NCBI GenBank assembly: GCA_964589635.1
Contig: CAZPRI010000001.1
Location: 1 to 50,319, forward strand
From: an uncultured Candidatus Saccharibacteria bacterium
Lineage (GTDB): Bacteria; Patescibacteriota; Minisyncoccia; Phycocordibacterales; JAACPR01
Reading direction: 5' to 3'
DNA length: 50,319 nt
Shown: positions 2,655 to 32,240 of the stretch, one piece after another
How positions within the stretch are numbered: position 1 is the stretch's first letter
How the letters are laid out: each line of letters opens with the position of its first letter
The notes under the pieces: model-generated
The model's input: only the letters and a program-made list of their open reading frames with translations
What the model was told of the DNA's origin: nothing
Databases searched by the model: none
Position numbers and translations under genes: made by a program

Positions 2655-2678
2655 TTTTAATATACTTATTCACAAAAA

Positions 2679-2706
2679 GCCGCGGCTTCGCCGCGGCTTT
2701 TTGCTT
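2679..2706 (+). terminator. Rho-independent terminator after fusA
   Basis: AGCCGCGGC-TTC-GCCGCGGCT stem followed by TTTT. Confidence 0.8.
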
Positions 2707-2728
2707 TTCATTGTTATAATAAATACAT

Positions 2729-5700
2729 ATGAAAAAATATTTATTGTTAGCTTTGTTAACGTTTGTTCCGTTTTTTGCAAGCGCTCAAGAAGCACCAGGG
2801 TTATATGTTTCAGATTTATTAATTGAAAAAACAAATTATCAAATAGGAGAGAATGTGACAGGAAGTTTTGACATATTCAATAGTTCAGAATCAGACGCAT
2901 CTGATTTGTATTATTCGTTATCATTAGTAAACGAAAGCTCAGTAACGGGAATAGGTAGTTCAGAAATCGAAGGACCATTTTTTGTGCATGCAAGCACTTC
3001 TGCTCCCGTGAATTTTGTCTATAAAATAAATGAAAAAATAGAGGATTCTAATCAATTACAAGTATCTCTGCATAAAAATAATGGTGCTGTTGTTGCGACA
3101 GGAAAAATAAATATTACTATTTCTGGAGATAATTTAAATTTTGCGGAATACAAACTAAAGGTTCCTTCATTGGTTGATGCTTACGAAACTGAAATACCTA
3201 CAATTGAAGAAATAGAGAGTAGAGAGGTTGGTGAGATGTCTTTTGATGAATTGGAAAAAGAAATTTTCATGATTCAACAATTTCAAGATGGTGATACAGA
3301 TTTCACACTGAATGATGTTCCTTATGTAGAAAAAGATGAAGAATTACTACTTATCGTTGATGAAGAGATTGAAGAGGTTGAAATAACAATATATAGAAAA
3401 AACTTCAACGGAGAGAATGTTTATTCATCCGTTCCTACTCCAGAAGATAACGATGGAGAAAAAAATATAACTATTCCAACTAATTTCACAGCCGGATATT
3501 ATGTCGGAGAAATTAAAGTTGATGGATATGTTACTTCACGATTTTCTTATAATATATTAGGAACACAGGCTGATATATTTAGTCTTACTTCAGATTCTCT
3601 TTCTCCAAAAAAAGGAGAATCATTTAATGTGAATTTAGTTTTGGGAGGGTGGCCTGTTGATGTGATAGGTTCTGAAGTTAATTCACAGCCAGAATACGTT
3701 GATATAGATTTGTTAGTTACAAATCAAAAAGGTGAGGTTGTTGATCAATATTCTCAGACTGTAATGGTTCCTGAGGTTATCGAAGAAAATGGTCAAACAA
3801 GTAATATATTCAACCTACCTATTAATCTAAAAGCAAAAAGTTCAGCAGAGAGCTTAACATTTGATTTGTTTGTTTATGATTCAGATACAGGGCAAATCCT
3901 AGATAGTCTACAGACAACTTTTGGATCTGAAATTAATGAAGAAAGTCCTAGTCTGAAAGTACTAATAGTTTCACTAATAATATTAATAGCTCTTTCTGCA
4001 ATTATATTTGCATTCAAGCTTGGTAAAAAAATACCAACAGTTGTATTAGTTCTTCTATTTGCATTAACAGTTTTCGGTTCATTTTCTACAGAAAAAACAG
4101 AGGCCTCATGGTGGACAGCAATAATTGATTCGCATAATGCATATTACAAGGGAGCACCTTCTGTGAGAGCATTGTGGGTACAAAATGGATATCTTAATAT
4201 CGATACTCCAAAACTGTATAGTGTGAAAAAATATCAACCAAATGAATCATTCACTTATGATGCAACATACTCAATTATTGCAGGAACATCGAATGGTTAT
4301 CTAGGATATATGATTGGAACACCTAGTGAGGCAGACTGGCACACATATACAAGTCTTGAATCTGCAAAGGCAGGTATACAATATTATTTAGATAACTACT
4401 CACTTCCATATTGGGCTATAAACTGGTACGGGCAATGTCTTGATGGAAATGCAGTTTCTTGTAATTTTTTGGATGGATACTCTAACCTATATGGTATCGA
4501 TATAGATGCACGACTAGCTGCTTCAACATTCACAGAAGAATTTTCAGGGTATTCATTTAGCAAGAGTTATTCTTACTCACACAATATGACAATGCCTTCT
4601 ACTCCTGGAGACTATTACATTCCTCTTCATATAACTTACTGTACTGCTTCTCATGGTTGCGCAGATAAAACATATATACAAAGAGTTGAAGTCACTGAAG
4701 ATACTGGTTCATTTTTAGGTGCACCTATTATTGAGGGCCCAAGCACTGGTAAAATTGATGAAGTGTTGAATTTCACAGCTGTAACATATTCTGAAGTCGC
4801 TTCAAATGGATCATTCATTAAAAAAGCCTTGGCTCAAGGTGCAGGTGATCAGGTTAGATATGGAATAGATTGGGATAATAATGATTCTATTGATGAATGG
4901 GCACCTTCTACTGGATATGAAAATATAGGTATAAAAGTCCCTTTCTCTAATTCTTGGGACACTACAGGAAGTTATACTTTTAAAGTATTAGCTGAAAATC
5001 AGGCTGGACTACAATCAGCCTGGACAACAAAAAATATCTTGATAGGAGAATATGACACATGCAGTGATTTTCCTGGAGAAAGGGAATGCATATCTAATAC
5101 ATGGCATGAATGGGTCTGCACATCTGATGGCTGGGAATTGTCTAATACGGGTGAGGTGTGCACAGTGGCTGATGATTATACATTGAGTTGTAGTTACAGT
5201 CCTTCAAGTTCAGTTGCTGAGGGGGGTAGTGTTACTGTCGAGGCTAGCATCTATAAAAATAATACCCTTCAGGAGGATGTTGACTTTGATTTTATATGGA
5301 AATTAAATGGTAATATAGTTAATAGTAATAATAAATCTGTTACTTTCGACAATTTAGATAATGGGTTTTATAATCTATTTCTCGAATTAGAGGACTTGAA
5401 TGAAGGAAAAAAAGTCGAAAATTTCCTAGAAGCCTGTCCATTCTCTATTGGTTCTAGTATTGAAGTTCCAGAAATATCTAGCTTCAAAATTACACCAAAC
5501 TTTGCTCCAAATTGTAAAGCATCATTTGTTGCAACAAATGTGACTACCTGTTCAATTATCGATGTTGATGGAGCTACTGTTGGTGAACCAATTTCTGATA
5601 TTGATGATGGTGATACTGATAGTACTATTAATGCTACGAATCGTCCTGTAGAAAAAGTTGGAACATTTCGTGTCAGATGTGAGGGATCAAATACAAAAAC

Positions 5701-5758
5701 AGTCTTCTCTGAAAACACACAAAAGTGTTCTTCAGTTGGAGATTTTATCCAGACATAA
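2729..5758 (+). CDS. Large secreted/membrane-associated protein of unknown function (PKD-like and Cys-rich C-terminal regions)
   Basis: 1009-aa ORF with an N-terminal signal peptide MKKYLLLALLTFVPFFASA. Internal hydrophobic pair near aa 408-455. A YGIDWDNNDSIDEW...SYTFKVLAENQAGLQSAW segment looks PKD-like. Confidence 0.7.
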   Translation: MKKYLLLALLTFVPFFASAQEAPGLYVSDLLIEKTNYQIGENVTGSFDIFNSSESDASDLYYSLSLVNESSVTGIGSSEIEGPFFVHASTSAPVNFVYKINEKIEDSNQLQVSLHKNNGAVVATGKINITISGDNLNFAEYKLKVPSLVDAYETEIPTIEEIESREVGEMSFDELEKEIFMIQQFQDGDTDFTLNDVPYVEKDEELLLIVDEEIEEVEITIYRKNFNGENVYSSVPTPEDNDGEKNITIPTNFTAGYYVGEIKVDGYVTSRFSYNILGTQADIFSLTSDSLSPKKGESFNVNLVLGGWPVDVIGSEVNSQPEYVDIDLLVTNQKGEVVDQYSQTVMVPEVIEENGQTSNIFNLPINLKAKSSAESLTFDLFVYDSDTGQILDSLQTTFGSEINEESPSLKVLIVSLIILIALSAIIFAFKLGKKIPTVVLVLLFALTVFGSFSTEKTEASWWTAIIDSHNAYYKGAPSVRALWVQNGYLNIDTPKLYSVKKYQPNESFTYDATYSIIAGTSNGYLGYMIGTPSEADWHTYTSLESAKAGIQYYLDNYSLPYWAINWYGQCLDGNAVSCNFLDGYSNLYGIDIDARLAASTFTEEFSGYSFSKSYSYSHNMTMPSTPGDYYIPLHITYCTASHGCADKTYIQRVEVTEDTGSFLGAPIIEGPSTGKIDEVLNFTAVTYSEVASNGSFIKKALAQGAGDQVRYGIDWDNNDSIDEWAPSTGYENIGIKVPFSNSWDTTGSYTFKVLAENQAGLQSAWTTKNILIGEYDTCSDFPGERECISNTWHEWVCTSDGWELSNTGEVCTVADDYTLSCSYSPSSSVAEGGSVTVEASIYKNNTLQEDVDFDFIWKLNGNIVNSNNKSVTFDNLDNGFYNLFLELEDLNEGKKVENFLEACPFSIGSSIEVPEISSFKITPNFAPNCKASFVATNVTTCSIIDVDGATVGEPISDIDDGDTDSTINATNRPVEKVGTFRVRCEGSNTKTVFSENTQKCSSVGDFIQT

Positions 5759-5774
5759 TATAAATATAAAAAAA

Positions 5775-5802
5775 CCGACCTGTTCTACAGGTCGGCTTTT
5801 TT
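5775..5802 (+). terminator. Rho-independent terminator
   Basis: CCGACCTG-TTCTA-CAGGTCGG followed by CTTTTTT. Confidence 0.75.
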
Positions 5803-5844
5803 AATAAGAATGACTACTGATAATTATCCTGATATAATTACGAT

Positions 5845-6105
5845 ATGAGTAATGTTGAATTTGATGATGAGCGGAATTTTAATACGAGTGCGCACTTTGT
5901 AGAAAAAAATTCTGCAATAATTCAAAAACTAATTGATCTTGGTATTGTCACTGATAAAAAATCAGCAAATATTCTTCTAGTTAGTATTGCAGTGGTTTTT
6001 CTTGTAGTTAGTTTGTTCTTATTCTTTAAAGTTTTCTCTAATGGTCCAGGAGCAAATAATGACCTTCCAGAAGATTTCCTTCCAGAAGACCTATTGTTGC
6101 CTTGA
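5845..6105 (+). CDS. Small single-pass membrane protein
   Basis: 86-aa ORF with one TM (ILLVSIAVVFLVVSLFLFFKVF) and an acidic PEDFLPEDLL tail. Ends TGA TGA TAA. Confidence 0.45.
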   Translation: MSNVEFDDERNFNTSAHFVEKNSAIIQKLIDLGIVTDKKSANILLVSIAVVFLVVSLFLFFKVFSNGPGANNDLPEDFLPEDLLLP

Positions 6106-6158
6106 TGATAAAAATATTACGACTTGCTTTTTATTGATATTTTGTTATTTTGATATTC

Positions 6159-6320
6159 ATAAGACCGAAGACAAGAGGCACACAACCACGTAAAATCAAT
6201 TTTATAAAAATTGACCACGTGGTAAATAAGTCCTCTCGAGGTTCTGCTTAAGAAGTTTTTTAAACAGACATCTTGTACCTATCGATCAGTCGGTCTTATA
6301 ACTGGTCGGTTTTTTATTAG
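6159..6320 (+). promoter_or_regulatory. Structured 5' leader upstream of rplJ (L10-leader-like)
   Basis: Nested helices: ATAAGACCGA (6159-6168) with TCGGTCTTAT (6290-6299), AGAGG with CCTCT, ACCACGT with ACGTGGT, and TCAATTTT with AAAATTGA. Lies directly 5' of rplJ. Confidence 0.4.
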
Positions 6321-6360
6321 AAAAGAATTATTTTTAATTCTTAATTTCTAGAGCCTAAAT

Positions 6361-6849
6361 ATGGCAATTACAAAAGATAAAAAGAAAGAAATACTAAAGA
6401 AATTGAATGACGTTACTACTCAAGAGTCAGTAGTGTTTGTAAATTTCCATAGTTTACCTGTTGCTGAAACTACAGAGTTGAGAAGAGAACTTCGATCAAA
6501 AGAAGTTAATTACTTTGTGGCAAAAAAGACATTGGTAAAAAAAGCATTTCAGGATTCAAAAATAAAAGGAGACCTTCCAGAGCTAGAAGGGGAACTTGCT
6601 GTTGTGTATGCAAATGACTCTACAACTGCTGCGAGAGAAATCTATTCTTTCCAAAAGAAATTTACAGATAAAATAAATATCTTAGGAGGAGTTTTTGAAG
6701 ACAAGTTCTTGAATAAATCTGAAATGGAGGAGATTGCTCTAATTCCATCAATCGATGTTCTTAGAGGAATGTTCGTGAATGTTATTAATTCACCAATTCA
6801 AGGATTTGCAATGGCAATAAAAGCAATTGCTGAAAGTAAAGAAGCGTAA
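6361..6849 (+). CDS. rplJ: 50S ribosomal protein L10
   Basis: 162 aa with an L10-like sequence, immediately upstream of rplL. Confidence 0.9.
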   Translation: MAITKDKKKEILKKLNDVTTQESVVFVNFHSLPVAETTELRRELRSKEVNYFVAKKTLVKKAFQDSKIKGDLPELEGELAVVYANDSTTAAREIYSFQKKFTDKINILGGVFEDKFLNKSEMEEIALIPSIDVLRGMFVNVINSPIQGFAMAIKAIAESKEA

Positions 6850-6870
6850 GTTATTAACTAAAATTTAATT

Positions 6871-7329
6871 ATGTCAGACGAACAAAACGTAAATACAGAA
6901 GAAGTAAAGAATGAAGTTGTTGCCGAGACTCCTGTAGTAGAAGAGACTACTGAAGAAGTTGAAGTTCCTGCTAAATTCGTAAAACTTGTTGAAGAGGTTG
7001 AGAACATGAGTGTTCTTGAACTAAACGAACTTGTAAAGGTTCTTGAAAAGAAATTTGGAGTTTCTGCTGTTGCTATGGCAGCACCAGCAGCCGGAGGAGC
7101 AGAAGCAGCAGAAGAAAAAGATGAATTCACTGTTCATTTAGCAGATGTTGGAGCATCAAAAATTGGTGTTATTAAGTCTGTTAAAGAAATCTTAGGTCTT
7201 GGTCTTAAAGAAGCCAAAGATTTAGTAGATGGAGCACCATCTGATCTTAAGACAGGAGCGAAAAAAGAAGAGGCTGAATCAATGAAAGCTAAACTAGAAG
7301 AAGCTGGAGCAAAGGTTGAACTTAAATAA
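6871..7329 (+). CDS. rplL: 50S ribosomal protein L7/L12 (with acidic N-terminal extension)
   Basis: C-terminal domain [27 protein letters not shown]...[14 protein letters not shown] is canonical L7/L12. Confidence 0.95.
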
Positions 7330-7348
7330 ATAAAACTTTTACACAGAT

Positions 7349-7386
7349 AAAACAAAAGCCGCACCAAAGGTGCGGCTTTTGTTTTA
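7349..7386 (+). terminator. Rho-independent terminator after rplL
   Basis: AAAACAAAAGCCGCACC-AAA-GGTGCGGCTTTTGTTTT. Confidence 0.85.
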
Positions 7387-7417
7387 TAATTAATACATAT
7401 AAATTAATAAAATATCT

Positions 7418-8701
7418 ATGAGTCCTAAATTATTTAAAATAGTTTCGATTTCTGCAATAGCTTTTGTTGCAGCAATGTCTATTGTTAACATTAAAAATTC
7501 TGAATTAAGCACAGTAAAGGATGGTGCATTTTCAAATAATGAAAATACTTTTGTGACATTAACTCCTGGGGTAGATCATTACTTCACTGTTGGAAAGGAA
7601 GGCCTAACTTTTTCTCAATTGACAGAGTCTGGTTTTAAACTCGATGATAATCGTTCTGTTGCTGGATATGTTTTAACCTGGGAGGATTCTGAAAAGCCAG
7701 ATAATACGGATAGGCAAGATTCTATTTATTATCAATCAAATCGTGTTTGGAAAAAATTTGGAAGCAGAGATTCTTTTGGAGATGAAAAAATTTCGAATTA
7801 CTTCGTTATACGAACACTTTCAACTAGACCGAGTATAAATTTAAATCTTCCTACTCATGTTACATACTTCGGTAGTACAAAATATAATTCAAGTGATAGA
7901 CCTTGGGAGAATGAAGATATCTCAGATGATTTTCCAAAAATTTATACTGAATTAATTAGTACATCTACTACAAATACTGATGATTCAACTATGGGGATTT
8001 ATTCTGCAAGATTCGAACTAACTGCAGAGGGTGGAGATGTGTATATTCCGAAAGAGGTTATAAGAACTAATCCAGAAAAAGATTCAAAAATAGAACCAGG
8101 GTTAAATATTTTTATAAAAAACTCTAAGAACAACATAATAAGTGAGCAGGATGCTGAATTTTCTTACAGTGTAAACACTTCAGCTGATACGGATTCAAAC
8201 TTCTATGTAATTGATGAGGGAGATACTGAAAGATTTGATTTAAAATTCGTAATTAATGATGTTAAAGATGATGGAATTTACAGAATCATGATGAAGGGTT
8301 TCACTTATTTTGACTCATCATCATACAATTCAGGCGATTCCAGAGTGCATGATTTTGGTTCAAATAATCGTTTTGCCTCAGAAAACCTTTTCATAAAGGG
8401 TGGTAATAGTTCAGAAGTTGGTGTTTGTAATATGACAAGAGATTTAAGTATTGGATCATCAGGTACTGATGTTGTTGCATTGCAGGATCTATTGGTGGAA
8501 AAAGGTTTACTGTCGTTCCCAGACGGGACTGCAAAGGGATATTTCGGTTCATCAACACAATCTGCTTTGGCTAAGTACCAGTCTCAAGAAAAAATAACGC
8601 TATTTTCTAATCTTACATATGGTCTTACTGGGCGAACAATAGAAAATGGTTATTTTGGATATCTTACTAGGTTGTACATAACAAATAATTGTAGGGGATA
8701 A
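7418..8701 (+). CDS. Secreted protein with C-terminal peptidoglycan-binding-like domain
   Basis: 427 aa with an N-terminal signal/anchor. The C-terminus GTDVVALQDLLVEKGLL...GYFGSSTQSALAKYQ resembles a PG_binding_1 repeat. Confidence 0.7.
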   Translation: MSPKLFKIVSISAIAFVAAMSIVNIKNSELSTVKDGAFSNNENTFVTLTPGVDHYFTVGKEGLTFSQLTESGFKLDDNRSVAGYVLTWEDSEKPDNTDRQDSIYYQSNRVWKKFGSRDSFGDEKISNYFVIRTLSTRPSINLNLPTHVTYFGSTKYNSSDRPWENEDISDDFPKIYTELISTSTTNTDDSTMGIYSARFELTAEGGDVYIPKEVIRTNPEKDSKIEPGLNIFIKNSKNNIISEQDAEFSYSVNTSADTDSNFYVIDEGDTERFDLKFVINDVKDDGIYRIMMKGFTYFDSSSYNSGDSRVHDFGSNNRFASENLFIKGGNSSEVGVCNMTRDLSIGSSGTDVVALQDLLVEKGLLSFPDGTAKGYFGSSTQSALAKYQSQEKITLFSNLTYGLTGRTIENGYFGYLTRLYITNNCRG

Positions 8702-8719
8702 AAAAAGACAGTATCTATA

Positions 8720-8746
8720 AAAAGCGGCCCGAAGGGCCGCTTTTTT
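8720..8746 (+). terminator. Rho-independent terminator
   Basis: GCGGCCC-GAA-GGGCCGC followed by TTTTTT. Confidence 0.85.
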
Positions 8747-8831
8747 AACACCTTACATAAAAACAAACTTAATAATCTGTCCCAACTCAATCTACACCAC
8801 TTCAGATACTTCAATTAAAGCATGAATTCTG

Positions 8832-8859
8832 TTGACATATACTATCCTTTTGTTAATAT
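8832..8859 (+). promoter_or_regulatory. Sigma70-type promoter for tuf-S10 transcription unit
   Basis: TTGACA (8832-8837), 16-nt spacer ending TGT, TAATAT (8854-8859); extended -10. Confidence 0.55.
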
Positions 8860-8975
8860 ACTTCTACTTATAGATTGCGCTTTTCATATGTGCATTCATT
8901 AGGTGTTTCTTTTTTTAAGGCACTTTCTCGCGCCCTTACAAAAGGAAATATTTTATTCATTATATTTAAAATAAT

Positions 8976-10172
8976 ATGTCAGAAACATTTGATAGATCAA
9001 AACCACACGTAAACGTTGGAACAATTGGTCACGTTGACCACGGAAAAACAACACTTACTGCTGCTATCCTGAGCACTCTTGATAAAAAAGGAGATGGATA
9101 CACAGCTTCAATTAAGGATGTTACACAAATTGATAGTGCCCCAGAAGAAAAAGCTAGAGGAATTACAATCGCTTTGTCTCATTCAGAATATGCTACACCA
9201 AGTAGACACTATGCTCACATTGATGCTCCAGGTCACGCCGACTACATTAAAAACATGATTACTGGTGCTGCCCAAATGGACGGTGCTGTACTTGTAGTTG
9301 CTGCCTCAGACGGTATGATGCCACAAACTAGAGAACACGTTCTTCTTGCAAAACAAGTTGGTGTTCCAAAGATTATCGTATTTATTAACAAGTGCGATAC
9401 AGTTGATGATACTGAAATGATTGAACTTGTAGAAGAAGAAATCAAGGATCTTCTAGACCAACATGGTTTCGATGGTCAAAACACACCATTTGTTAGAGGT
9501 TCTGCTCTAAAAGCTTTAGAAGAAGGACCAGATGGAGAATGGGGAGGAAAAATTATGGAACTTGTAGAACACATGGATTCATACATCCCGACACCAGTTA
9601 GGGAAACTGACAAACCTTTCCTTATGCCAGTAGAAGACATTTTCTCAATCGAAGGTAGAGGAACTGTTGTTACAGGAAGAATCGAAAGAGGTGTTATTAA
9701 AGTTGGGCAAGAAGTAGAAGTAGTTGGTATCAAAGATACAGTTAAAACTACAATTACTGGAGTAGAGATGTTCAACAAGTCTCTTGAGTCAGGAATGGCA
9801 GGAGATAACGCTGGTCTACTTGTAAGAGGTCTTAAGAAAGAAGAAATTCACAGAGGACAAGTTCTTGCTGCACCAGGATCAGTAACTCCACATACAGAAT
9901 TCGAAGCTGAAGTTTATATTCTAAAGAAAGAGGAAGGAGGAAGACACACACCATTCTTCACAGGATACAAACCACAATTCTACATTAGAACTACTGACGT
10001 TACAGGTGAAGTTTCACTTGCTGAAGGAGTAGAAATGGTTATGCCAGGAGACACAGTTACTTTCAAAGTAAAACTTGTGAACCCAGTTGCTCTTGAAGAT
10101 CAAACAAGATTCGCTATTAGAGAAGGAGGTAGAACTGTAGGAGCTGGAGTTGTGACAAAAGTTACAGCCTAA
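8976..10172 (+). CDS. tuf: Translation elongation factor Tu
   Basis: 398 aa with [18 protein letters not shown] and NKCD. Confidence 0.98.
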
Positions 10173-11900: not shown

Positions 11901-12308
11901 ATGGCATTATTCGGAAAGAAAGAAGAAAAGAAAGATAAAAAAGTAGCAAAAAAAGCTCCTACTAAAAAGGCTACAGCAACAAAAACAAAGAAAAAAGATG
12001 TTGCTCCAAAGAAAGTTGGAAAAACTACATCTGCTGATCTTTTTTGGGTTTTAGTTTCACCTAGAATTACAGAGAGAACAGCTGTTCAATCAGAAGATAA
12101 AGTTTTTGTTTTCAATGTTCATGTTGACTCAAACAAGATCCAAATAAAAGAAGCTATAAAGAAGCAATACAATGTTGTTCCTGAAAAAGTTAACATTGCA
12201 AAGATTGCTTCAAAGCCTGTATTTAGAAAAGGTGTAAAAGGTAAAAAGTCTCAAGGTAAAAAAGCCTACGTTTACCTAAATAAAAAAGATTCAATACAAT
12301 TTGTATAA
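11901..12308 (+). CDS. rplW: 50S ribosomal protein L23 (Lys-rich N-terminal extension)
   Basis: C-terminal L23 core (RITERTAVQSEDKVFVFNV...IKEAIKKQYNV) at the expected operon position. Confidence 0.9.
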   Translation: MALFGKKEEKKDKKVAKKAPTKKATATKTKKKDVAPKKVGKTTSADLFWVLVSPRITERTAVQSEDKVFVFNVHVDSNKIQIKEAIKKQYNVVPEKVNIAKIASKPVFRKGVKGKKSQGKKAYVYLNKKDSIQFV

Positions 12309-12315
12309 AAATAAG

Positions 12316-12347
12316 AAAAAACCCTCGAAACTATTGAGGGTTTTTTC
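12316..12347 (+). terminator. Rho-independent terminator after rplW
   Basis: AAAAAACCCTC-loop-GAGGGTTTTTT. Confidence 0.65.
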
Positions 12348-12369
12348 TTATACATGCTAAAATATTTCT

Positions 12370-13419
12370 ATGGAAAAACCAGAAGCTATAAAGTTTCACT
12401 CGGGAAGTGAGCATAGTCTTTCTGCAAAGGAAATCATTAATCCAATACTTGAAAGGGAGCATTTTATTGAGTCTCTGTATGAAAAATTAAAAGACGCGAC
12501 TATTGAACAAAAAACTGATGTAGTGTCTATACTATTCAAAAATTCTGTTGAAGATGGGATGACTCTATCCAAAAAGTTAGGATTAAATACTACCGCAACG
12601 TTTCAGTCTTTGATGGATTCAGCAGATAGAGAAGATAGATTGATAGAGCAAATAACATCATCAGTGTCCAGAGAGGTTGATAATATGTCTGACACAAATA
12701 GAATATTATTTGAAACAGAACTAAGTGACTACGAAAGACGAAAAGATGATCAGTCAATCAGGAAAAGAGTTATACAAAAAGAGACTGAAGATGAAATACA
12801 AGAATACTACCTTCCTTTTATTGCACAAAAGAGAGTACAAGAAAAAATAGGAATAAGTAGTAGTTTGGCAGATGAATCTCTGGTTCAATTATTTACTACA
12901 CGAGAAAGAATACGAGGAAACCTGTTTCCGTTTTTTACAATTGCCGATTATATAAAGAAGGAAACAGGAAAAGAGCTAGAGTGGGGAGGTGAAAGGACTT
13001 TAACAGAAAAGGAAGCAATAGTTGTTCTAGAAAAATATGGATTAGATTTAGAAAATGCTAAGGCTTCTAAAAGAATAAATCCAATGCCTGTGTATAAAGA
13101 AATTTATGATGCTCAAAAAGATAATGCAAAATTAGAACTTAAAAAAGAGATTAGAGAAAGCCTTATTTCTAGAGGATACAGTGAAGGTGATTTTGAAATT
13201 TTTAAAAAGGGTACAAAATATGTAATTGAGTTTTCAGATGATATCGAAAAAAAGGAAACATTCTCTGATTATCAAAAGAAAAAAGTGGCAGCTATTGAAA
13301 AAGAATTACTCAAAGAAGGTGTAGACAAATACTCCATCGCCCAAGGTCTCGCCGGTGTATCAACTCCTGAATCTATAGAACTAAGAGAAAGACTACTTAA
13401 AGAAGGATTGAGTCCTTAA
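12370..13419 (+). CDS. Hypothetical helical protein (no recognisable domain)
   Basis: 349-aa ORF, charged/helical, first gene of the insert between rplW and rplB. Confidence 0.6.
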   Translation: MEKPEAIKFHSGSEHSLSAKEIINPILEREHFIESLYEKLKDATIEQKTDVVSILFKNSVEDGMTLSKKLGLNTTATFQSLMDSADREDRLIEQITSSVSREVDNMSDTNRILFETELSDYERRKDDQSIRKRVIQKETEDEIQEYYLPFIAQKRVQEKIGISSSLADESLVQLFTTRERIRGNLFPFFTIADYIKKETGKELEWGGERTLTEKEAIVVLEKYGLDLENAKASKRINPMPVYKEIYDAQKDNAKLELKKEIRESLISRGYSEGDFEIFKKGTKYVIEFSDDIEKKETFSDYQKKKVAAIEKELLKEGVDKYSIAQGLAGVSTPESIELRERLLKEGLSP

Positions 13420-13464
13420 ATTATATGTCTCTACTATTTTTGTAATGCAGAAAGATTGATATAC

Positions 13465-13692
13465 ATGACTAAAATATTCGAACATAATGAGTCACAAGAT
13501 GAAAATGAGGAATTTGAAGAAGAAAGATTATAAAAATTATATTTGATAGATAACTCAAACAAGGAAAAAGAAGAGGAGGCAATAGAAAAAATTGAAAAAG
13601 TACTAAGTATCTCAGAGAAATACTTATCTGAAATAGAAAAGAAAGCTGCTTTTGCAACAATAAACTATTTGAAAGCAAAGAATTTGATATAA
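13465..13692 (+). other. Small helical ORF interrupted by an in-frame TAA (13531-13533)
   Basis: ATG 13465 reads MTKIFEHNESQDENEEFEEERL, then TAA, then KLYLIDNSNKEKEEEAIEKIEKVLSISEKYLSEIEKKAAFATINYLKAKNLI and TAA 13690. Ends 8 nt before the ATPase start. Confidence 0.3.
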
Positions 13693-13700
13693 TCTAAATA

Positions 13701-16499
13701 ATGGAATTAAAAAATACCTTTCTTACTATTGAATCAGGGAAAATAGATTCTTTGGAAAGAGAAAAAGAAATTTTACAGAACGAAATTCTTGAAAGAGAAA
13801 AAAAAATCTCAGATTCAAATCCTGAAATAGTAAGAAATCAGGCAGTTGCTGAAACGTTATCTGAGTATGCTCAAAATAAACCACATGAAGTTTTAGATAA
13901 TGAAATACTTTTGGATGAGAAATCAGAGCATGAAATTGTTCTTGCGCTTTCTCCCGAAAAACATGATGACAAAATGGCGAACCTAATAGGTTTAATTCAA
14001 ACGAAAGGTATTTTGAATACTTTAGCAGTTATCCAAAAGACAGAAGATTCTCACGTGCAGGACGACTTTCACAGATTTTTAGTTCAGTATGTAAAAGAGG
14101 GTCTTCCTGTGAACGGGCTTACAGATAAAAGTGAATTAACAAAAATTTTAAAAAGAACTTTGTTTGAAATTGTTTTACCAAGTTTTAGGGGCGGGGAAGA
14201 AGGTGGTTTTAAGGTTTTATATAACAATATGAAACAGTTTTATACAGGAATGCTTTCTATTGCAAATGAAACTGATTATTTAACTCTAGAAATTGCAAAC
14301 GCTATTGGATCAAGAGAATTCATATTTTACGTGTCCGTGAGCGACTCATCTATAGATTTATTTGAAAAACAAATTCTTTCTATTTTCCCAGATGCAAGAA
14401 TGGAAGTTAAAAATGATGATTATAATATTTTTGGAGAAGCGGGCGAATCTTCTGGTGCTTATGCTACTCAAAAAGAATTGACAGTGAAAACTTTGAAAAC
14501 TGCAGAGGAGATGGATACTGATCCAGTGCGAGTTATGTTAAATATTTTCTCAAAACTTGATGAACATAATGAAGCTGCAGCAATCCAAATTATCTTCAAA
14601 CCTGTAAAAGATTTTTATACTAAAGCTTATTTGAAAGGTTTGGCCAAAGCGGAAAAGGGTGAGGGTGCTTCAGAGTTCTTTAGTATAAGAAACACAACCG
14701 GAGACAAATTCATGAGAGGAGTTTCTAAGGCTGTATCTATGACCGGGTCTATTTTTGAAGGAAGGAAAAGTTCAGAAGATGAAAAACCAAAGGATGTTGA
14801 CTCAAACCTTATAGAAAATGTAAACAAGAAAATTACTTCAGAAGTTGTTTCAACAAATTTACGACTAGTGGCTTCATCTGCTACTAAGGCTCGAGCTGAT
14901 GCTATTTTGTCGGAAATTAAGTCTGCCTTTAATCAGTATCAAAACACTAAAGGTAATAGATTGGAATTTGTTAATGTTTCTGAAAAGTATAAAAAGACAT
15001 TCTTTAAGAAATTTTCATTTAGAGAATTCAATCCAGCAAATGATATGCCACTTAGTATAGATGAATTATCTTCTTTAGCTTATTTTGTTTCTGAACAAAA
15101 AGACCTAAGCCCACAACTTAAAACTTCTGGATTTAAGACATCATCAGCACCTGTGAATATTGCTAGTGATGGAATTTTACTCGGAAAAAATGTCCACAGA
15201 GGAGCAGACACAGAAATTCATTTTTCAGACAATGACAGAATGAGACACTTTTATGCGATCGGACAAACAGGAACTGGTAAGACAACACTTTTGAAAAATA
15301 TGATAATTCAAGATATTAAAAACGGAGACGGTGCTTGTTTTATCGACCCGCATGGATCCGATGTTCAAGATATTTTGGCGAATATTCCACCAGAAAGAAT
15401 GGATGATGTTATCTATTTTGATCCTGCCGACATGAAGAGACCGATGGGGCTAAATATGCTTGAATACGATTCTAATTATCCAGAACAAAAAACTTTTGTT
15501 GTTAATGAATTGTTTTCTATTTTTCAAAAATTGTATGGAGAGTCTAATCCAGAATCTATGGGTCCTATGTTTGAACAATATTTCAGAAACGCGACAATGC
15601 TCGTGATTGAAGATCAAGAATCAGGCTCAACACTTCTTGATGTTTCAAGAGTTCTTGTTGATAAAGAGTTTAGAGAAATGAAATTGTCTAAATGTAAGAA
15701 CCCGGTAATTTTGACTGCATGGAGAGAGAACCTCGAAAAAGCGGGAGGGGAAGCGTCTCTTGCCAATGTTGCTCCGTACATTACATCAAAGTTCGATGTA
15801 TTTTTAGCTAACGACATAATGCGACCAATTATTGCTCAAGAAAAATCAAGTTTTAATTTCAGGGACATTATGGATAATAAGAAGATTTTACTTGTAAATC
15901 TTTCGAAGGGAAGACTTGGGGATATAAACTCAAGCTTGATTGGTTTGATTTTGGTTGGAAAGATTTTGATGGCAGCTCTTTCAAGAGTTGATTCGTTTGG
16001 AAAAGAAATGGCACCATTTTATTTATATATTGATGAGTTTCAAAATGTTACAACTCCATCTATTTCTGCAATTTTGTCAGAAGCCAGAAAGTATCAACTT
16101 TCATTAAACATAGCTCATCAATTCATAGATCAGTTATCAGATGGAATTAGAAGTTCTGTCTTTGGTAACGTTGGAACTATTTGTACATATCGAGTTGGAG
16201 CCAAGGATGCTGAGTTTCTAGAGTCACAATTCAGTCCAACTTTTGTTGCAAAAGATATACAAAATATAGACAACTATAATGCGTACATCAAAATGCTTTC
16301 AAATGGTGTACCAATAAATCCATTTTCTCTCCGAGCACTCGTTCCACCAGAAGGAAATCTCGAGCAAGTAGAAAAATTAAAGGAATATTCTTCTCTGAAG
16401 TATGGAAGAGTACGAGAGGAAGTGGAAGAAGAGATTATGAATAGGTATAAAAAAGAGGATAAACCTGTTCAAGAAAGAAACCCATTCGATAAGATATAG
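13701..16499 (+). CDS. TraD/VirD4-like (type IV coupling protein-like) P-loop ATPase with a ~500-aa unknown N-terminal region
   Basis: 932 aa. Walker A GQTGTGKTT (15261-15287), Walker B YLYIDEFQ (DE at 16032-16037), then ARKYQLSLNIAHQFIDQL typical of TraG/TraD C-terminal modules. No obvious TM segments. Confidence 0.75.
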   Translation: MELKNTFLTIESGKIDSLEREKEILQNEILEREKKISDSNPEIVRNQAVAETLSEYAQNKPHEVLDNEILLDEKSEHEIVLALSPEKHDDKMANLIGLIQTKGILNTLAVIQKTEDSHVQDDFHRFLVQYVKEGLPVNGLTDKSELTKILKRTLFEIVLPSFRGGEEGGFKVLYNNMKQFYTGMLSIANETDYLTLEIANAIGSREFIFYVSVSDSSIDLFEKQILSIFPDARMEVKNDDYNIFGEAGESSGAYATQKELTVKTLKTAEEMDTDPVRVMLNIFSKLDEHNEAAAIQIIFKPVKDFYTKAYLKGLAKAEKGEGASEFFSIRNTTGDKFMRGVSKAVSMTGSIFEGRKSSEDEKPKDVDSNLIENVNKKITSEVVSTNLRLVASSATKARADAILSEIKSAFNQYQNTKGNRLEFVNVSEKYKKTFFKKFSFREFNPANDMPLSIDELSSLAYFVSEQKDLSPQLKTSGFKTSSAPVNIASDGILLGKNVHRGADTEIHFSDNDRMRHFYAIGQTGTGKTTLLKNMIIQDIKNGDGACFIDPHGSDVQDILANIPPERMDDVIYFDPADMKRPMGLNMLEYDSNYPEQKTFVVNELFSIFQKLYGESNPESMGPMFEQYFRNATMLVIEDQESGSTLLDVSRVLVDKEFREMKLSKCKNPVILTAWRENLEKAGGEASLANVAPYITSKFDVFLANDIMRPIIAQEKSSFNFRDIMDNKKILLVNLSKGRLGDINSSLIGLILVGKILMAALSRVDSFGKEMAPFYLYIDEFQNVTTPSISAILSEARKYQLSLNIAHQFIDQLSDGIRSSVFGNVGTICTYRVGAKDAEFLESQFSPTFVAKDIQNIDNYNAYIKMLSNGVPINPFSLRALVPPEGNLEQVEKLKEYSSLKYGRVREEVEEEIMNRYKKEDKPVQERNPFDKI

Positions 16500-16520
16500 T
16501 CTAAATAATATTGATATTAC

Positions 16521-16549
16521 TTGATTTTATTATAAATGCGGGTTAATAT
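16521..16549 (+). promoter_or_regulatory. Candidate promoter for rplB
   Basis: TTGATT (16521-16526), 17-nt spacer, TAATAT (16544-16549). Confidence 0.4.
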
Positions 16550-16661
16550 CATGCAACTTATATTTAAGTGTTTTTCACTTGAAAAAGTATTAATTATTAG
16601 GTTGTATACCCGTTCGACTCCGCCAAAGGTTTCGATCAGGGTGCTAACTAAAAAACTTATT

Positions 16662-17510
16662 ATGGCATTAAAGAAATATAAACCAACATCGCCAGGTCAA
16701 AGAAATATGACTGTAATCAAATACAGGGATTATTTGACTACAGACAAACCAAACAAGAAACTTACAAAAGGTAAGAGAAGTACTGGTGGTAGAAACTCTG
16801 ATGGTAGAATTACTACAAGACACAAAGGAGGTGGAAACAAGAAAAAATACCGACAAATCGATTTTAAATATAACAAGATCGGTATTCCAGCAAAACTAGA
16901 AACTATTGAGTATGATCCAAACAGAACAGCCTTTATTGGTGTTGCTCTGTATGCTGATGGAGAGAGAAGATATATTATCGTTCCTCAATCAATGAAGGTA
17001 GGAGATACATTTGAGGTTTCAGAAACAGCTAAGACTAAGACAGGTAACAGAACTATGATTGGTAAAATTGCTGTAGGAACATTTGTTTATAATATTGAAC
17101 TACAACCAGGAAATGGTGCGAAATTAGTTCGATCAGCAGGAAACTATGCTGAGATTGTTGCTCAAGATGTAGAAACAGGAATGACTCAACTAAAAATGCC
17201 TTCAACAGAAATAAGAAAAGTTATTTCAACAGTTTGGGCATCAATTGGTGAAGTTTCAAACCCAGAGAAAAAACTTGTTAATGTTGGTAAGGCTGGTAGA
17301 AACAGACACAAAGGTGTTAGACCGACTGTTAGAGGTTCAGCTATGAACGCTGTAGACCATCCACACGGAGGAGGAGAAGGTAGACAAGGTATTTCTCTTA
17401 GAAGAGGTCCTAAGACACGACAAGGTAAACTTGCATACGGTGTTAAGACTAGAAAGAAGAAGAAATATTCAAAGAATATGATTGTGAAGAGAAGAAAGAC
17501 ACAGAGATAG
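16662..17510 (+). CDS. rplB: 50S ribosomal protein L2
   Basis: MALKKYKPTSPGQR start; RHKGGGNKK and HPHGGGEG motifs. The track ORF start at 16536 adds a non-homologous leader. Confidence 0.95.
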   Translation: MALKKYKPTSPGQRNMTVIKYRDYLTTDKPNKKLTKGKRSTGGRNSDGRITTRHKGGGNKKKYRQIDFKYNKIGIPAKLETIEYDPNRTAFIGVALYADGERRYIIVPQSMKVGDTFEVSETAKTKTGNRTMIGKIAVGTFVYNIELQPGNGAKLVRSAGNYAEIVAQDVETGMTQLKMPSTEIRKVISTVWASIGEVSNPEKKLVNVGKAGRNRHKGVRPTVRGSAMNAVDHPHGGGEGRQGISLRRGPKTRQGKLAYGVKTRKKKKYSKNMIVKRRKTQR

Positions 17511-17520
17511 ATTTAAAAAG

Positions 17521-17554
17521 AAAAAAGCGCGGCCTTCGGCCGCGCTTTTTCTTT
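17521..17554 (+). terminator. Rho-independent terminator after rplB
   Basis: GCGCGGCC-TTC-GGCCGCGC followed by TTTTT. Confidence 0.85.
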
Positions 17555-17576
17555 ATATTTACTTGTCCAAAAACCC

Positions 17577-17713
17577 CGTCATCCCCCACAACACCACCGT
17601 CATCCTCCGCCCTACACCACCGTCATCCTCGGGTTTAACCCGGGGACCCATGTTTAAAACTATCGTAAATAATATTTTTAAGGCCTAGGTCCCTGCCTAC
17701 GCAGGGATGACGG
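17577..17713. repeat. GTCATYC-hairpin composite element, copy 2, preceded by tandem half-sites
   Basis: CGTCATCC at 17577, 17598 and 17621 (21-23 nt period). Arm CGTCATCCTCGGGTTTAACCCGGGGACCC, AT-rich spacer, then the inverted arm GGCCTAGGTCCCTGCCTACGCAGGGATGACGG. Confidence 0.8.
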
Positions 17714-17825
17714 AGGAGGGTGTTTTTTAATTTATTCTGCTGAGTTTAGTTCTCATGAGGTGGGAAAATACCTATTTATCCAAAAAAAAAAGTATAATAT
17801 TACTAGTTATTAATTTATTTAAAAT

Positions 17826-18644
17826 ATGAAAATCTTTCAAAAAACAGTCTTGTTCTCTTTATTATTTATTCTTTTTGTTCCTTTTGTTTCGAGTGCAGAA
17901 GAATCAGCAAATAAAAATGATATTTATTTAAGTGGTGACATTGATTCAAAGGTTCACGTTATCACATACATAGACTTTGAGAGCCCTTTTGCAGATAAAT
18001 TTAATACTACAGTTAAAAGTTTAATTGATGAGTATGATGAGGATGATGTATCTTTTCTCTATAGATTTCTTCACTTAACTGGAATCTATCCTAAAGCAGA
18101 AGAAAGAATACAGGCTTTTATGTGCATGTTGGATATTGGTGATAGTGATGAGAAAATCGAATATTTAGACAGGGTATTCGGAGCGGTATCAACTGATGAA
18201 CATGAGGTAGAAGAGGTTGATCTAGATAGCTCAGATTTTGAAGATTGTTTAGAAAGTAATAAATACCTGAAAGAGATATCAGAAAATACAGATATGTATA
18301 TGAATGAGTTTAGAAAAGATTCTCAGTTTGGAATACCTCATACATCTATTTTTATTGGCAATAGTTTTGAAGCTAACATAAGAGGTGCAGTTCCAAAGAA
18401 TGAAGCAGAAAGAGTAATTGATCTAGTATTAAAGATCGATAATGACGATCATGAAGATGACGACGACGATAAGGAACATGTTGATAAATATGACGATGAG
18501 TATGAAGATGACGACAATATGGAACATGAGGACGTGAATCTTTCAGCTTCAGAGATTTCATTCCTAATTGAAACTATTTTTGGAAAAAACTCAGATGTTT
18601 ATAAGTTTATACAGTTGCTAATTCAGGTTGGAGTGATTAAATAA
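17826..18644 (+). CDS. Secreted DsbA-like thioredoxin-fold protein lacking the CxxC motif, with acidic/His-rich tail
   Basis: Signal peptide present. VHVITYIDFESPFADKF aligns to the DsbA-family FxDFxCPFC region but has SPFA (17982-17993). The later FEDCL...GIPHTSIFIGN pattern fits. Tail is DNDDHEDDDDDKEHVDKYDDEYEDDDNMEHED. Confidence 0.6.
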   Translation: MKIFQKTVLFSLLFILFVPFVSSAEESANKNDIYLSGDIDSKVHVITYIDFESPFADKFNTTVKSLIDEYDEDDVSFLYRFLHLTGIYPKAEERIQAFMCMLDIGDSDEKIEYLDRVFGAVSTDEHEVEEVDLDSSDFEDCLESNKYLKEISENTDMYMNEFRKDSQFGIPHTSIFIGNSFEANIRGAVPKNEAERVIDLVLKIDNDDHEDDDDDKEHVDKYDDEYEDDDNMEHEDVNLSASEISFLIETIFGKNSDVYKFIQLLIQVGVIK

Positions 18645-18704: not shown

Positions 18705-18735
18705 AAAAAAGCGGCCCTTCGGGCCGCTTTTTGTT
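18705..18735 (+). terminator. Rho-independent terminator
   Basis: GCGGCCC-TTC-GGGCCGC followed by TTTTT. Confidence 0.85.
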
Positions 18736-22621: not shown

Positions 22622-22906
22622 TCATTGTCTACAACCCTTGTTAGAGTCTACAACCCTTGTTAGACCTCCAATTTTATTCCGAATAATCAATTCAGAAAGT
22701 GACCAGTCCTCATTTACGAGACTCAGTAGTCTATGGGGCGTACCCTGAATACTTGTATGAGTCGCTACACCCTCTTCTTCTGTTGAGATTCCAATCAAGA
22801 TTGGAATACTGCTGGGTGAGAATGATAAGGCCATAAGTCTTTTCCTAAGTCTCCTCAGACAAAGATCGGATTTCTTGCTGTTTTTTTCTACAATTGTGTA
22901 TTTCAT
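22622..22906 (-). CDS. Questionable 94-aa ORF in a GC-elevated segment (could instead be non-coding)
   Basis: ORF track only. Its last 14 codons are the tandem repeat, it holds a perfect 20-bp palindrome at 22788-22807, and no family was recognised. Confidence 0.3.
   Translation of the reverse strand: MKYTIVEKNSKKSDLCLRRLRKRLMALSFSPSSIPILIGISTEEEGVATHTSIQGTPHRLLSLVNEDWSLSELIIRNKIGGLTRVVDSNKGCRQ
22627..22664. repeat. Perfect tandem duplication of a 19-bp near-palindromic unit
   Basis: GTCTACAACCCTTGTTAGA at 22627-22645 and again at 22646-22664. Confidence 0.95.
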
Positions 22907-22949
22907 TTTTTTGTGTTCTGTCCCAAATAGGATGTTACCACCTTTAGGT

Positions 22950-22982
22950 TAAAAGAAAAGGCCGAAGCGAAGCTTCGGCCTT
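22950..22982 (-). terminator. Rho-independent terminator for the minus-strand 91-aa gene
   Basis: AAGGCCGAAGC-GAA-GCTTCGGCCTT, with a T-run on the minus strand (complement of AAAAGAAAA). Confidence 0.75.
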
Positions 22983-22985
22983 AAT

Positions 22986-23261
22986 CTACCTTAGGATGAT
23001 TTCAATCATCAAACCAGTACTAGGAAACCTTTTTAGGGGTATTTCGCCTATAATGATATCCAGTGCCTGTCTGAATGTCTCTAGGATAGAGTAGGGTGCT
23101 CCTACAAAATCTGTTTCAGTATTATCAGTCAAATCTCTGATTGAAAGAGTTACTTCAGAGTCTGGATGCTCCTCCTTTAGTTCTCGAAGTCTTAATAAGA
23201 CTTCTTCAGAATCATCAGATTTTAATTTTCCTGAGGTATATTCGAGTACGTATTTGTCCAT
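22986..23261 (-). CDS. Hypothetical acidic 91-aa protein
   Basis: ORF with its own terminator immediately downstream; no recognisable domain. Confidence 0.5.
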   Translation of the reverse strand: MDKYVLEYTSGKLKSDDSEEVLLRLRELKEEHPDSEVTLSIRDLTDNTETDFVGAPYSILETFRQALDIIIGEIPLKRFPSTGLMIEIILR

Positions 23262-30040: not shown

Positions 30041-30631
30041 ATGAATAAAGAAACGTATATTTTCATCTCTAGGTCAGGAGGAGGAAAGGGTACTCAAGTT
30101 GCATTATTAGAAGAATATATAAAAGAAAAAGACTATAGCCCTGTATTCCATATGGAGGCAGGAGACAGGTTTAGAGAGTTTATTTCACATAACACCTATT
30201 CCAGCAATTTAGCAAAGGAAATGACTAATTCTGGCGAATTATTGCCATCTTTCCTGGCAGTTTGGGCTTGGACCACTGAATTAATTACAGGTGTAAAGGA
30301 AAACCAAATATTGATTATTGATGGCACACCAAGACAGCTAGATGAGGCAATTATTTTAGATGAAGCTTTGAAATTTTACGGAAGAAATAAGGTTAAAGTT
30401 GTTGTAATTGATGTTTCAAGAGAATGGTCAATTGAAAGAATGAAGGAAAGAAAAAGGGCTGACGATAGAACTTTTGAATCTAGAAAGAAGAGATTAGATT
30501 GGTTTGAGGCTGATGTAGTAAAGGTTCTAGATTATTTTGAAGAAAGTCCTGATTATGAAGTTATAAAGGTTAATGGGGAACAGTCTATCAAAAAAGTTCA
30601 TGATGAGATTTTAGAGAAATTAAAAATATAA
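30041..30631 (+). CDS. adk: Adenylate kinase-like nucleotide kinase
   Basis: SRSGGGKGTQ P-loop; 196 aa; lies between secY and map as in spc-operon tails. Confidence 0.75.
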   Translation: MNKETYIFISRSGGGKGTQVALLEEYIKEKDYSPVFHMEAGDRFREFISHNTYSSNLAKEMTNSGELLPSFLAVWAWTTELITGVKENQILIIDGTPRQLDEAIILDEALKFYGRNKVKVVVIDVSREWSIERMKERKRADDRTFESRKKRLDWFEADVVKVLDYFEESPDYEVIKVNGEQSIKKVHDEILEKLKI

Positions 30632-31398: not shown

Positions 31399-31450
31399 GG
31401 AAAATATGTAATATGATGAAGTATAAAGATCTTTAAAATAAGTTTGTATT

Positions 31451-32233: not shown

Positions 32234-32240
32234 AACTTTA

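Follow-up and report, generated by a model that had tools for sequence, protein, structure and literature searches.

The 50,319-nt stretch analysed here (the window; contig CAZPRI010000001.1 of an uncultured Candidatus Saccharibacteria bacterium) carries a ribosomal protein gene cluster in which rplW and rplB are separated by a 4.35-kb block (12309-16661). This block is likely to be a lineage-specific rearrangement into a permissive gap, not a functional module. In the scenario we propose, the S10 operon would have been cut between rplW and rplB in the clade before the insert, with a terminator, a promoter and a leader in place. Two items, a pseudogene and an intact ATPase gene, would have been placed between the terminator and the promoter in one species. 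The initial annotation had presented the block as three co-oriented open reading frames (ORFs) for a 349-aa helical protein, a small protein and a 932-aa P-loop ATPase, and as the most system-like block in the window.

rplW (11901-12308, + strand; L23, 135 aa with a Lys-rich N-terminal extension; Pfam Ribosomal_L23, 1.4e-18) is the final gene of an upstream rpsJ-rplC-rplD-rplW unit, and relatives keep the identical order. rplB (16662-17510, + strand; L2, 282 aa; Pfam Ribosomal_L2_N/_C) follows after 4,353 nt. Its start is the ATG at 16662 and not the ORF-finder start at 16536; the orthologues in the related loci L176 and L177 are 282 aa long and their starts align. The rplW-rplB adjacency is normally conserved, as the initial annotation had stated. 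In 73 unrelated metagenome loci with both genes the gap is 6-239 nt (median ~18). This control set was reused from an L23 metagenome scan in which the matches listed are distant bacteria (≤44% identity). Nothing beyond the odd arrangement itself points to a chimeric contig within the ribosomal operon, and we see next to no chance of such an artefact, as 10 contigs from different samples and assemblers (SPAdes NODE_, MEGAHIT k141_, JGI) cross the rplW-remnant, remnant-ATPase and ATPase-rplB junctions and are all ≥99.96% identical. The order L3-L4-L23-349aa-ATPase-L2 thus recurs in independent ENA and JGI assemblies. The 10 sampled contigs represent one near-clonal population.

Close relatives were found by protein search and contig look-ups. 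The insert between rplW and rplB is absent from all relatives examined (L23 identity 56-72%; gaps 58-526 nt). The distance from rplW to rplB is 172 nt in L176 (L23 identity 72%), 453 nt in L177 (71%), ~60 nt in L182 (60%) and ~526 nt in L184 (56%); the gaps of L177 and L184 hold minus-strand ORFs of 76 and 75 aa, respectively. A terminator hairpin stands directly after rplW in the window, L176 and L177, at an equal place and with differing sequences. Because terminator position, promoter and leader are common to the insert-free relatives as well, the gap appears to be older than the insert, i.e., the S10 operon was apparently already broken at rplW|rplB before the insert arrived. The insert would have been tolerated because the terminator on one side of it, and the promoter and leader on the other, were already in place. 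The 75-76-aa minus-strand ORF in the gap of two related lineages (L177 2764-2994, L178 1422-1652, L184 2813-3040, L185 1040-1267) may be a conserved small gene at a shared soft spot.

The end of the rpsJ-rplW unit carries an intrinsic-terminator-like hairpin (12311-12351, + strand) with a 9-nt loop, a T-run and 16-nt perfect arms (12311-12326 and 12336-12351) that form a 100% complementary inverted repeat. Its folding free energy (dG) is -23.4 kcal/mol, z = -9.35, and 0/200 shuffles fold equally well. The hairpin was missed by a generic terminator scan. Its stability and its place in L176 and L177 bear out the terminator that the initial annotation had proposed after rplW, and rpsJ-rplW transcripts would stop here. 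The promoter-like site before rplB (16521-16549, + strand; TTGATT-17 nt-TAATAT) scores under the threshold of a generic promoter scan. Even so, it holds up as previously proposed: its position and sequence are kept in L176, where TTGATT-17-TATTAT stands straight after the rplW terminator, and in L184, where TAATAT is found at the aligned position. A strong terminator-like hairpin lies 3′ of rplB (17522-17550, + strand; 13 pairs, 8 of them G-C), and with it in place rplB would either form a mono-cistronic unit or close a unit read through from the ATPase gene. The generic scan found no terminator-like site with a T tail on the + strand from 13701 to 16661. Read-through from the ATPase gene into rplB is possible, as suggested before, because no terminator lies between them. 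Some ATPase transcripts may run on into rplB, and the expression of rplB would be independent of this read-through because the ancestral promoter and leader are kept.

The remnant and the ATPase gene would each start from an extended -10 promoter of the leaderless type, 6-7 nt before the ATG. The upstream-motif scan placed TGCTAAAAT (12355-12363, + strand) 6 nt before the ATG of the remnant and TGATATAAT (13685-13693, + strand) 7 nt before that of the ATPase. The latter element is probably the ATPase's own promoter, and the ATPase orthologue of L005 has TGTTATAAT at an equal distance from its start. The pattern TGnTAnnnT is found 15-21 nt before the start codon in 9 of ~50 window genes (starts at 2729, 12370, 13701, 30041, 34982(-), 37482, 39926, 42560(-) and 45011(-)), with ~0.65 expected by chance on our own estimate. 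Shine-Dalgarno-like motifs are rare upstream of window genes. The extended -10 geometry before these starts suggests that leaderless or near-leaderless transcripts are common in the source genome.

The first item in the block is best described as a pseudogene. It is one frame of 441 codons (12370-13692, + strand) with in-frame TAA codons at 13417-13419 and 13531-13533. The 349-aa ORF of the initial annotation corresponds to 12370-13419. The small ORF it had listed at 13465-13692 is not open, as it contains the TAA at 13531-13533; its callable part is 13543-13692, and it shares its frame with the 349-aa ORF. Two of the three co-oriented ORFs, those of 349 and 932 aa, do exist. Residues 13-346 of the 349-aa product match the N-terminal ~350 residues of P0244 (1097 aa; 4e-88), P0245 (1556 aa) and P0246 (1173 aa) in an exhaustive HMMER search (E 4e-88 to 8e-48). 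This search overturned the view of the 349-aa ORF as an orphan, for which a word-indexed search had returned two partial repeat matches only. Translated conceptually, the frame matches P0244 in three segments. Residues 3-347 match positions 5-354 at 44% identity and residues 311-424 match 405-522, across both stops (BLASTP); residues 402-440 match 1059-1097, at 85% identity over the last 39 aa. The second TAA stands where the P0244 alignment has a Glu codon. The last 30 aa of the full-length homologues match at 80-87% (tblastn), and their C-terminus "...EKYLS.IE.KAAFATINYLKAKNLV" compares with "...EKYLSEIEKKAAFATINYLKAKNLI" at the end of the small ORF in the window.

The full-length proteins P0244-P0246 have 4 to ~20 tandem "GLAGVSTPEAM.LRE.L...GVDK" repeats and a transglutaminase-like core. 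Transglut_core/DUF553 is weakly detected, in these three proteins only, and the DUF553 cut-off is passed by P0246 alone. What survives in the window frame is the first ~350 aa, a single "GLAGVSTPES..LRERLLKEG" repeat, ~75 codons beyond the repeat and ~39 codons at the end. All but one repeat are lost (3 or more gone), and ~545 internal aa are deleted, the transglutaminase-like core included, so that P0244 ~523-1058 is without a counterpart. Thus, the frame shares the N-terminal domain, the repeat unit and the C-terminal tail of this family and lacks an intact >1,000-aa ORF with the Transglut_core/DUF553 region. Each independent contig covering the stops carries both, and recoding of the stop codons is unlikely because TAA also serves as the normal stop codon of rplW. 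From these alignments, the frame at 12370-13692 appears to be what is left, after decay, of a gene that encoded a 1,100-1,550-aa transglutaminase-like repeat protein. PADLOC returned no match for the 349-aa ORF or P0244.

The 349-aa ORF might instead be alive, as a truncated N-terminal domain protein retained (neo-functionalised) under its own promoter. It has 349 intact codons with the extended -10 element 6 nt upstream, and it is identical in all sampled contigs. The contigs are near-clonal, however, which makes their identity uninformative on selection, and homology extends in frame beyond the stop, a sign of recent decay. Nor did we find a stand-alone ~350-aa homologue; P0251 (189 aa) and P0266 (223 aa) cover part of the domain. 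We consider a live 349-aa gene improbable. Three other proteins were compared and set aside. A 345-aa minus-strand gene beside the ATPase in L004 and the window's own 1009-aa protein are not homologous to the 349-aa ORF, and a 75-aa ORF upstream of the L004 ATPase has the same length as the small ORF and an unrelated sequence. Separately, a 27-28-aa tandem repeat, "GLAGV(S/G)TPE(S/A)M.LRE.LL..G.DK", is present in 3 to ~20 copies in P0122, P0123, P0245 and ~60 others, and it is found with differing partner domains (AAA_5, transglutaminase-like) in Patescibacteria proteins. This "GLAGV..TPE" repeat may resemble HEAT-like repeats.

A true functional module, in which the three products (a 349-aa helical protein, a small protein and the ATPase) would cooperate and be expressed along with rplB, would fit the co-orientation of the ORFs and their spacing of 8 nt between 13692 and 13701, as described previously. 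It would also fit the lack of a terminator before rplB and the promoter-like elements at both ORFs. We nevertheless hold this module to be very unlikely. The smaller two of its ORFs are pieces of a single gene that has acquired two nonsense codons and lost ~545 aa internally. The co-occurrence expected of the 349-aa and 932-aa genes was sought in 85 ATPase loci and in 3 loci of full-length homologues and was seen in none. The tblastn searches of the 85 ATPase loci found no homologue of the 349-aa ORF (0/85), no homologue of P0244-P0246 (0/85), and no L23, L2, L4 or S19 within ~8 kb of the ATPase (0/85). The full-length transglutaminase-like genes are found beside a dUTPase gene, between recG and a major facilitator superfamily gene, and after tatD. 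The initial annotation had itself offered absence from close relatives and lack of co-occurrence as signs of a random insertion, and the insert is absent from the closest L23 relatives. A conserved system-like module is therefore not upheld.

The second item, the ATPase gene (13701-16499, + strand), is intact and encodes a soluble P-loop ATPase of 932 aa (ORF; Pfam/NCBIfam profiles). Family members occur in at least 570 GTDB species genomes (at least 570 of the first 600 pattern matches encode one), and come from Parcubacteria, Paceibacteria and Nomurabacteria metagenome-assembled genomes, which places the source organism in the Patescibacteria (Parcubacteria/Paceibacteria type). The homologues are 53-71% identical over their full length, with >200 invariant columns in 26 sequences. 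Their preferred address is S5-L15-SecY-Adk-Map-[ATPase]-NDK-DUF2238-betaCASP, and secY, adk, map, ndk, DUF2238 and beta-CASP are the conserved neighbours in 80 GTDB loci. map lies directly upstream in 30/80, and map and/or ndk flank the gene in 38/80 (e.g., L007, L009, L024, L069 and ~30 others). The closest homologues (68-71%) are found in the orders RuvX-tRNA_bind-[ATPase]-PilM-... or YceG-75aa-[ATPase]. From these differing addresses, the ATPase gene appears to have moved repeatedly in the sub-clade. Between map (30631-31398) and ndk (32508-33164) the window has two small ORFs (31562-31852 and 31877-32233) with no Pfam match, and no ATPase remnant was found at this site (31399-32507).

These addresses allow for another interpretation, which we think rather unlikely: that the DUF8128 ATPase does not belong to a secretion system and is instead a housekeeping motor whose expression is tied to the translation/secretion cluster, and that its linkage to growth-rate-regulated ribosomal units has been selected. 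In its favour are the secY-adk-map|ndk site in about half of the sampled Parcubacteria-type genomes and the second ribosomal-cluster site here, directly upstream of rplB without a terminator.

Alternatively, the block could have been acquired horizontally as an island, or brought in as cargo by a mobile element aimed at the rplW-rplB spacer. The ATPase family is found at ≥3 addresses among close relatives, L176 has an IS200-type Y1 transposase elsewhere in its ribosomal cluster, and a 17-nt imperfect direct repeat, GATATA(A/G)TCTAAATAAT, flanks the ATPase ORF. The left copy, GATATAATCTAAATAAT (13686-13702, + strand; 16/17 identical), overlaps the ATPase start codon, and the right copy, GATATAGTCTAAATAAT (16493-16509, + strand), overlaps the stop codon; the copies are spaced 2807 apart. 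By our estimate ~0.5 such repeat pairs are expected in the region, and a search for the repeat in the flanks of relatives showed only the shared TATAAT-N7-ATG start motif. The repeat may be due to chance, a shared -10/start motif or a relocation scar. It includes a common -10-like motif, which weakens it as evidence for an island. No transposase, integrase or tRNA (ORF list, Pfam and Rfam scans) and no inverted terminal repeats (repeat search) were found in or beside the block. Base composition also argues against an island, with a GC content of 0.29-0.35 in the block, like its surroundings, and ~0.33 in the window. Finally, the identity to the nearest ATPase (71%) is about that of L23 (72%), which fits vertical descent. 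An acquired island or cargo is unlikely on this evidence.

The ATPase has two domains. Residues ~88-480 (13962-15140, + strand) form an N-domain assigned to Pfam DUF8128 (PF26449), and residues ~490-900 (within 13701-16499, + strand) a C-domain with a VirD4/TrwB/HerA-type NTPase profile. Walker A is GQTGTGKT (residues 521-528; 15261-15284, + strand) and Walker B is YLYIDE (residues 774-779; 16020-16037, + strand). The C-half matches Pfam TrwB_AAD_bind, TraG-D_C and DUF87 and NCBIfam TraD and CD1115 VirD4-like; PF10412 is above its cut-off at 23.7 bits, and PF12696 and PF01935 are just below theirs. The PF26449 assignment comes from precomputed annotation, which covers the window protein (P0001, 100% identity) and all 120 listed homologues; the local Pfam search did not return DUF8128. 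A literature search on "DUF8128" found no papers. No N-terminal membrane anchor is apparent, as the first 490 residues hold no hydrophobic 19-mer above Kyte-Doolittle 1.3, and the sole segment near 1.9 (residues 742-760) lies inside the NTPase core. In L086, a C-to-T change at position 4808 (window 15366) splits the ATPase into ORFs of 555 and 366 aa. L086 is one low-coverage (3.7x) contig of the same population, and the change is either a sequencing error or a segregating nonsense variant.

A profile of the family alignment (A1) against the PDB gave a match to TrwB (E 0.0035), the sole match at the sequence level. The AlphaFold model of the whole protein (predicted local distance difference test, pLDDT, 64) has full-length R388 TrwK/VirB4 as its best Foldseek match (8e-11 over ~920 columns), followed by TrwB (8e-6), HerA, Cag-beta and DotL, over the C-half only. 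For the model of the N-domain (88-480; pLDDT 74, predicted TM-score, pTM, 0.75), the top 13 Foldseek matches are all TrwK/VirB4 (E 1.4e-6 to 1.2e-4, TMq 0.40-0.47; the best E with TMq 0.45). Thus, DUF8128 would have a VirB4 N-domain-like fold of moderate similarity, and the models give the ATPase a VirB4 architecture combined with a P-loop signature like that of type IV coupling proteins (T4CPs), without a membrane anchor. The VirB4 two-domain arrangement (N-domain and C-terminal P-loop) is found here at a moderate, model-based level. No VirB4 family profile was among the Pfam/NCBIfam matches at E ≤ 0.1, no VirB4 chain was returned by the PDB profile search, and no virB3, virB6 or virB8 neighbours were seen in the window or in the family loci examined. 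The protein has the Walker A/B motifs and profile similarity of coupling proteins and lacks their N-terminal anchor. Within the window it is not linked to a relaxase or type IV secretion system (T4SS), its neighbours being rplW, the pseudogene and rplB. The fold and family of the ATPase make a hexameric, NTP-driven translocation motor of the VirB4/VirD4 superfamily its most likely identity, and suggest that the motor would serve a T4SS-like or pilus/DNA-uptake envelope machinery. The P-loop ATPase of the initial annotation is confirmed by its Walker motifs and profiles.

A role in an anti-phage defence system of the MADS-like type was also considered. The PADLOC mad8 profile matches residues 512-864 (E 3.7e-15), and there are weak matches to HerA defence profiles. 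The mad8 match is limited to the generic P-loop domain, however, and there is no other defence component nearby; the mad gene set is not co-located. Its housekeeping synteny and its 53-71% full-length identity across so many species genomes are unlike variable defence islands. A defence function is thus highly improbable.

The third pre-existing element of the gap is a conserved structured leader directly 5′ of the rplB start (16589-16664, + strand), found in alignments A2, A4 and A5. Its core stem-loop (16600-16649, + strand) has a variable apical hairpin inside the invariant flanks ATTAGGTTGTATA(C/G)C ... GG(T/C)TGCTAACTAAA. The leader is common to all five lineages (the window, L176 10513-10583, L177 3104-3173, L184 3222-3294 and L182 5392-5454). 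The apical hairpin differs in sequence between lineages yet pairs in each, and the flank has one compensatory pair, C-G to G-C. A covariance model (R1) matches only the window, L176-L178 and L182-L185 among 88 sources, which include 80 other L23 loci from diverse bacteria. Eight loci of a single clade carry the known copies, which amount to five distinct sequences. Rfam has no curated covariance model for it: there was no match in 16500-16700 at E ≤ 5, and the only Rfam signal on the block was sub-threshold noise at the rplW terminator. The element before rplB may be a new clade-specific autoregulatory ribosomal-protein leader, for which it is a candidate.

Several points weigh against a lineage-specific rearrangement, or limit what can be said of it. 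The promoters, leaderless starts and read-through are inferred from sequence. The 349-aa ORF keeps its promoter-like element and could still yield a truncated protein. The direct repeat brackets the ATPase ORF exactly and could mark a specific recombination mechanism. The ATPase models are moderately confident (pLDDT 64 for the whole protein and 74 for the N-domain), with TM-scores of 0.27-0.47. The direction of events comes from four relatives by L23 and three by the ATPase, and our searches did not recover a same-genus genome without the insert, the closest L23 being 72% identical. An internal move of the ATPase gene and its replacement by a related lineage's copy are indistinguishable in a 50-kb window.

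The break at rplW|rplB is one of at least six in the window's ribosomal cluster, and it cannot be seen as a singular anomaly. The cluster is also interrupted at fusA|rplJ, rplL|tuf, rplB|rpsS, rplE|rpsH and secY|adk. The canonical + strand order of rpsJ, rplC, rplD, rplW, rplB, rpsS, rplV, rpsC and rplP is kept. The S10 operon does not appear contiguous as a single transcription unit, given the 4,353-nt gap and the hairpins after rplW, rplB and a 272-aa gene. With the inserted genes, the + strand order is fusA, a 1009-aa unknown, rplJ, rplL, a 427-aa PG-binding protein and tuf in the 5′ part; rpsJ, rplC, rplD, rplW, the block, rplB and a 272-aa thioredoxin-like secreted protein in the middle; and rpsS, rplV, rpsC, rplP ... 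secY, an 851-aa protein with immunoglobulin (Ig) domains, adk and map in the 3′ part. Relatives hold lineage-specific genes at rplB|rpsS and rplE|rpsN, and these junctions are therefore general soft spots. Literature searches on gene order in ribosomal operons and on insertions into them yielded no pertinent papers.

The genes at the other junctions are diverse. Between rplB and rpsS, the 272-aa protein (17826-18644) begins with a hydrophobic stretch resembling a signal peptide, contains a Thioredoxin_4/DsbA-like domain and ends in a very acidic tail of mainly Asp and Glu; strong terminator-like hairpins stand on both sides of the gene (17522-17550 and 18706-18732). The same junction holds different genes in L184 and L185 (PG_binding/Kre9_KNH). 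The 851-aa protein between secY and adk (27384-29939) has Ig-like domains (He_PIG, Big_9) and, unusually for a bacterial protein, a match to the Nup98-96 autopeptidase S59 domain (E 8e-7). The 1009-aa protein between fusA and rplJ (2729-5758) has no Pfam match, and a 1022-aa gene is found at the equivalent position in L176 (1-2634). The order fusA-unknown-rplJ-rplL-PG-binding-tuf-rpsJ (519-10172) is itself unusual, with no rpoB/rpoC or rpsL/rpsG between rplL and fusA/tuf; L176 shares it from the large unknown ORF to rpsJ, and carries its IS200-type Y1 transposase before tuf. Between rplE and rpsN/rpsH (22622-23261, - strand) are small ORFs of 94 and 91 aa with no Pfam match, and at this junction L176 has three small minus-strand ORFs (17448-18288). 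A transfer-messenger RNA gene (47735-48108, - strand; RF00023, 106 bits) is the only Rfam match at the gathering threshold in the window.

If this reading of the block is correct, even a gene pair as nearly universal as rplW-rplB can be separated harmlessly where a terminator, a promoter and a leader already serve the two sides independently, and the reduced genomes of Patescibacteria tolerate repeated insertions within the ribosomal super-cluster. The DUF8128 fold and the map|ndk address would refine the question of the roles of orphan T4CPs in Patescibacteria, and the clade-specific rplB leader candidate is defined well enough for testing. The remnant is also a caution for gene callers, as one pseudogene was read as two genes.

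Each of the three elements can be compared with known systems. The distribution of ribosomal-protein leader RNAs has been surveyed (PMC3616713). Like such leaders, e.g., the E. coli S10/L4 leader, the window leader is a conserved hairpin directly 5′ of a ribosomal-protein start codon; unlike them, it has no Rfam family, is confined to one clade and shows one compensatory pair. The pseudogene shares with the uncharacterised P0244-P0246 the N-terminal domain (39-47% identity), one copy of the repeat ("GLAGVSTPE..LRE.L...GVDK"), the post-repeat segment and the tail (85%). It differs from them in its 2 nonsense codons and in the absence of ~545 aa, the core and 3 or more repeats.

The ATPase has more relatives to be set against. 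A survey of 3,035 Patescibacteria genomes reported 5,713 VirD4-like homologues, spread over 2,918 of the genomes; just 148 of the homologues lie near virB4. It also noted that the VirD4-like homologue is not essential in Ca. Southlakia (PMC12102498). The authors left a different, exapted function of these homologues possible (PMC12102498, Microb Genom 2025). The window ATPase would probably count among these homologues, because it matches the same kind of T4CP profiles. Like the orphan VirD4-like T4CP homologues of Patescibacteria, its P-loop matches TrwB_AAD_bind, TraG-D_C, T4SS-DNA_transf and TraD, and no T4SS gene adjoins it in the window or belongs to the conserved surroundings of the family's 85 loci. 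Those homologues are treated as coupling proteins (PMC12102498), whereas the window ATPase has no anchor and has a 400-aa N-domain like the N-terminal domain of VirB4. With TrwB/VirD4/TraD (PDB 1e9r) it shares a Walker A/B NTPase with a helical insertion between the motifs; it differs in the lack of N-terminal transmembrane helices and of a relaxase or T4SS context, and in its extra DUF8128 domain. TrwK/VirB4 of R388 (PDB 7o42, 8rtd) has the same plan of N-domain and P-loop C-domain and a similar total length, and it is the best Foldseek match both for the whole model and for the N-domain alone. Unlike TrwK/VirB4, the window ATPase has no VirB4 profile match, no virB3/6/8 neighbours and modest TM-scores, and the conserved neighbours of its family are map and ndk. 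Judged by the predicted models, the architecture of the window ATPase is closer to VirB4 than to VirD4.

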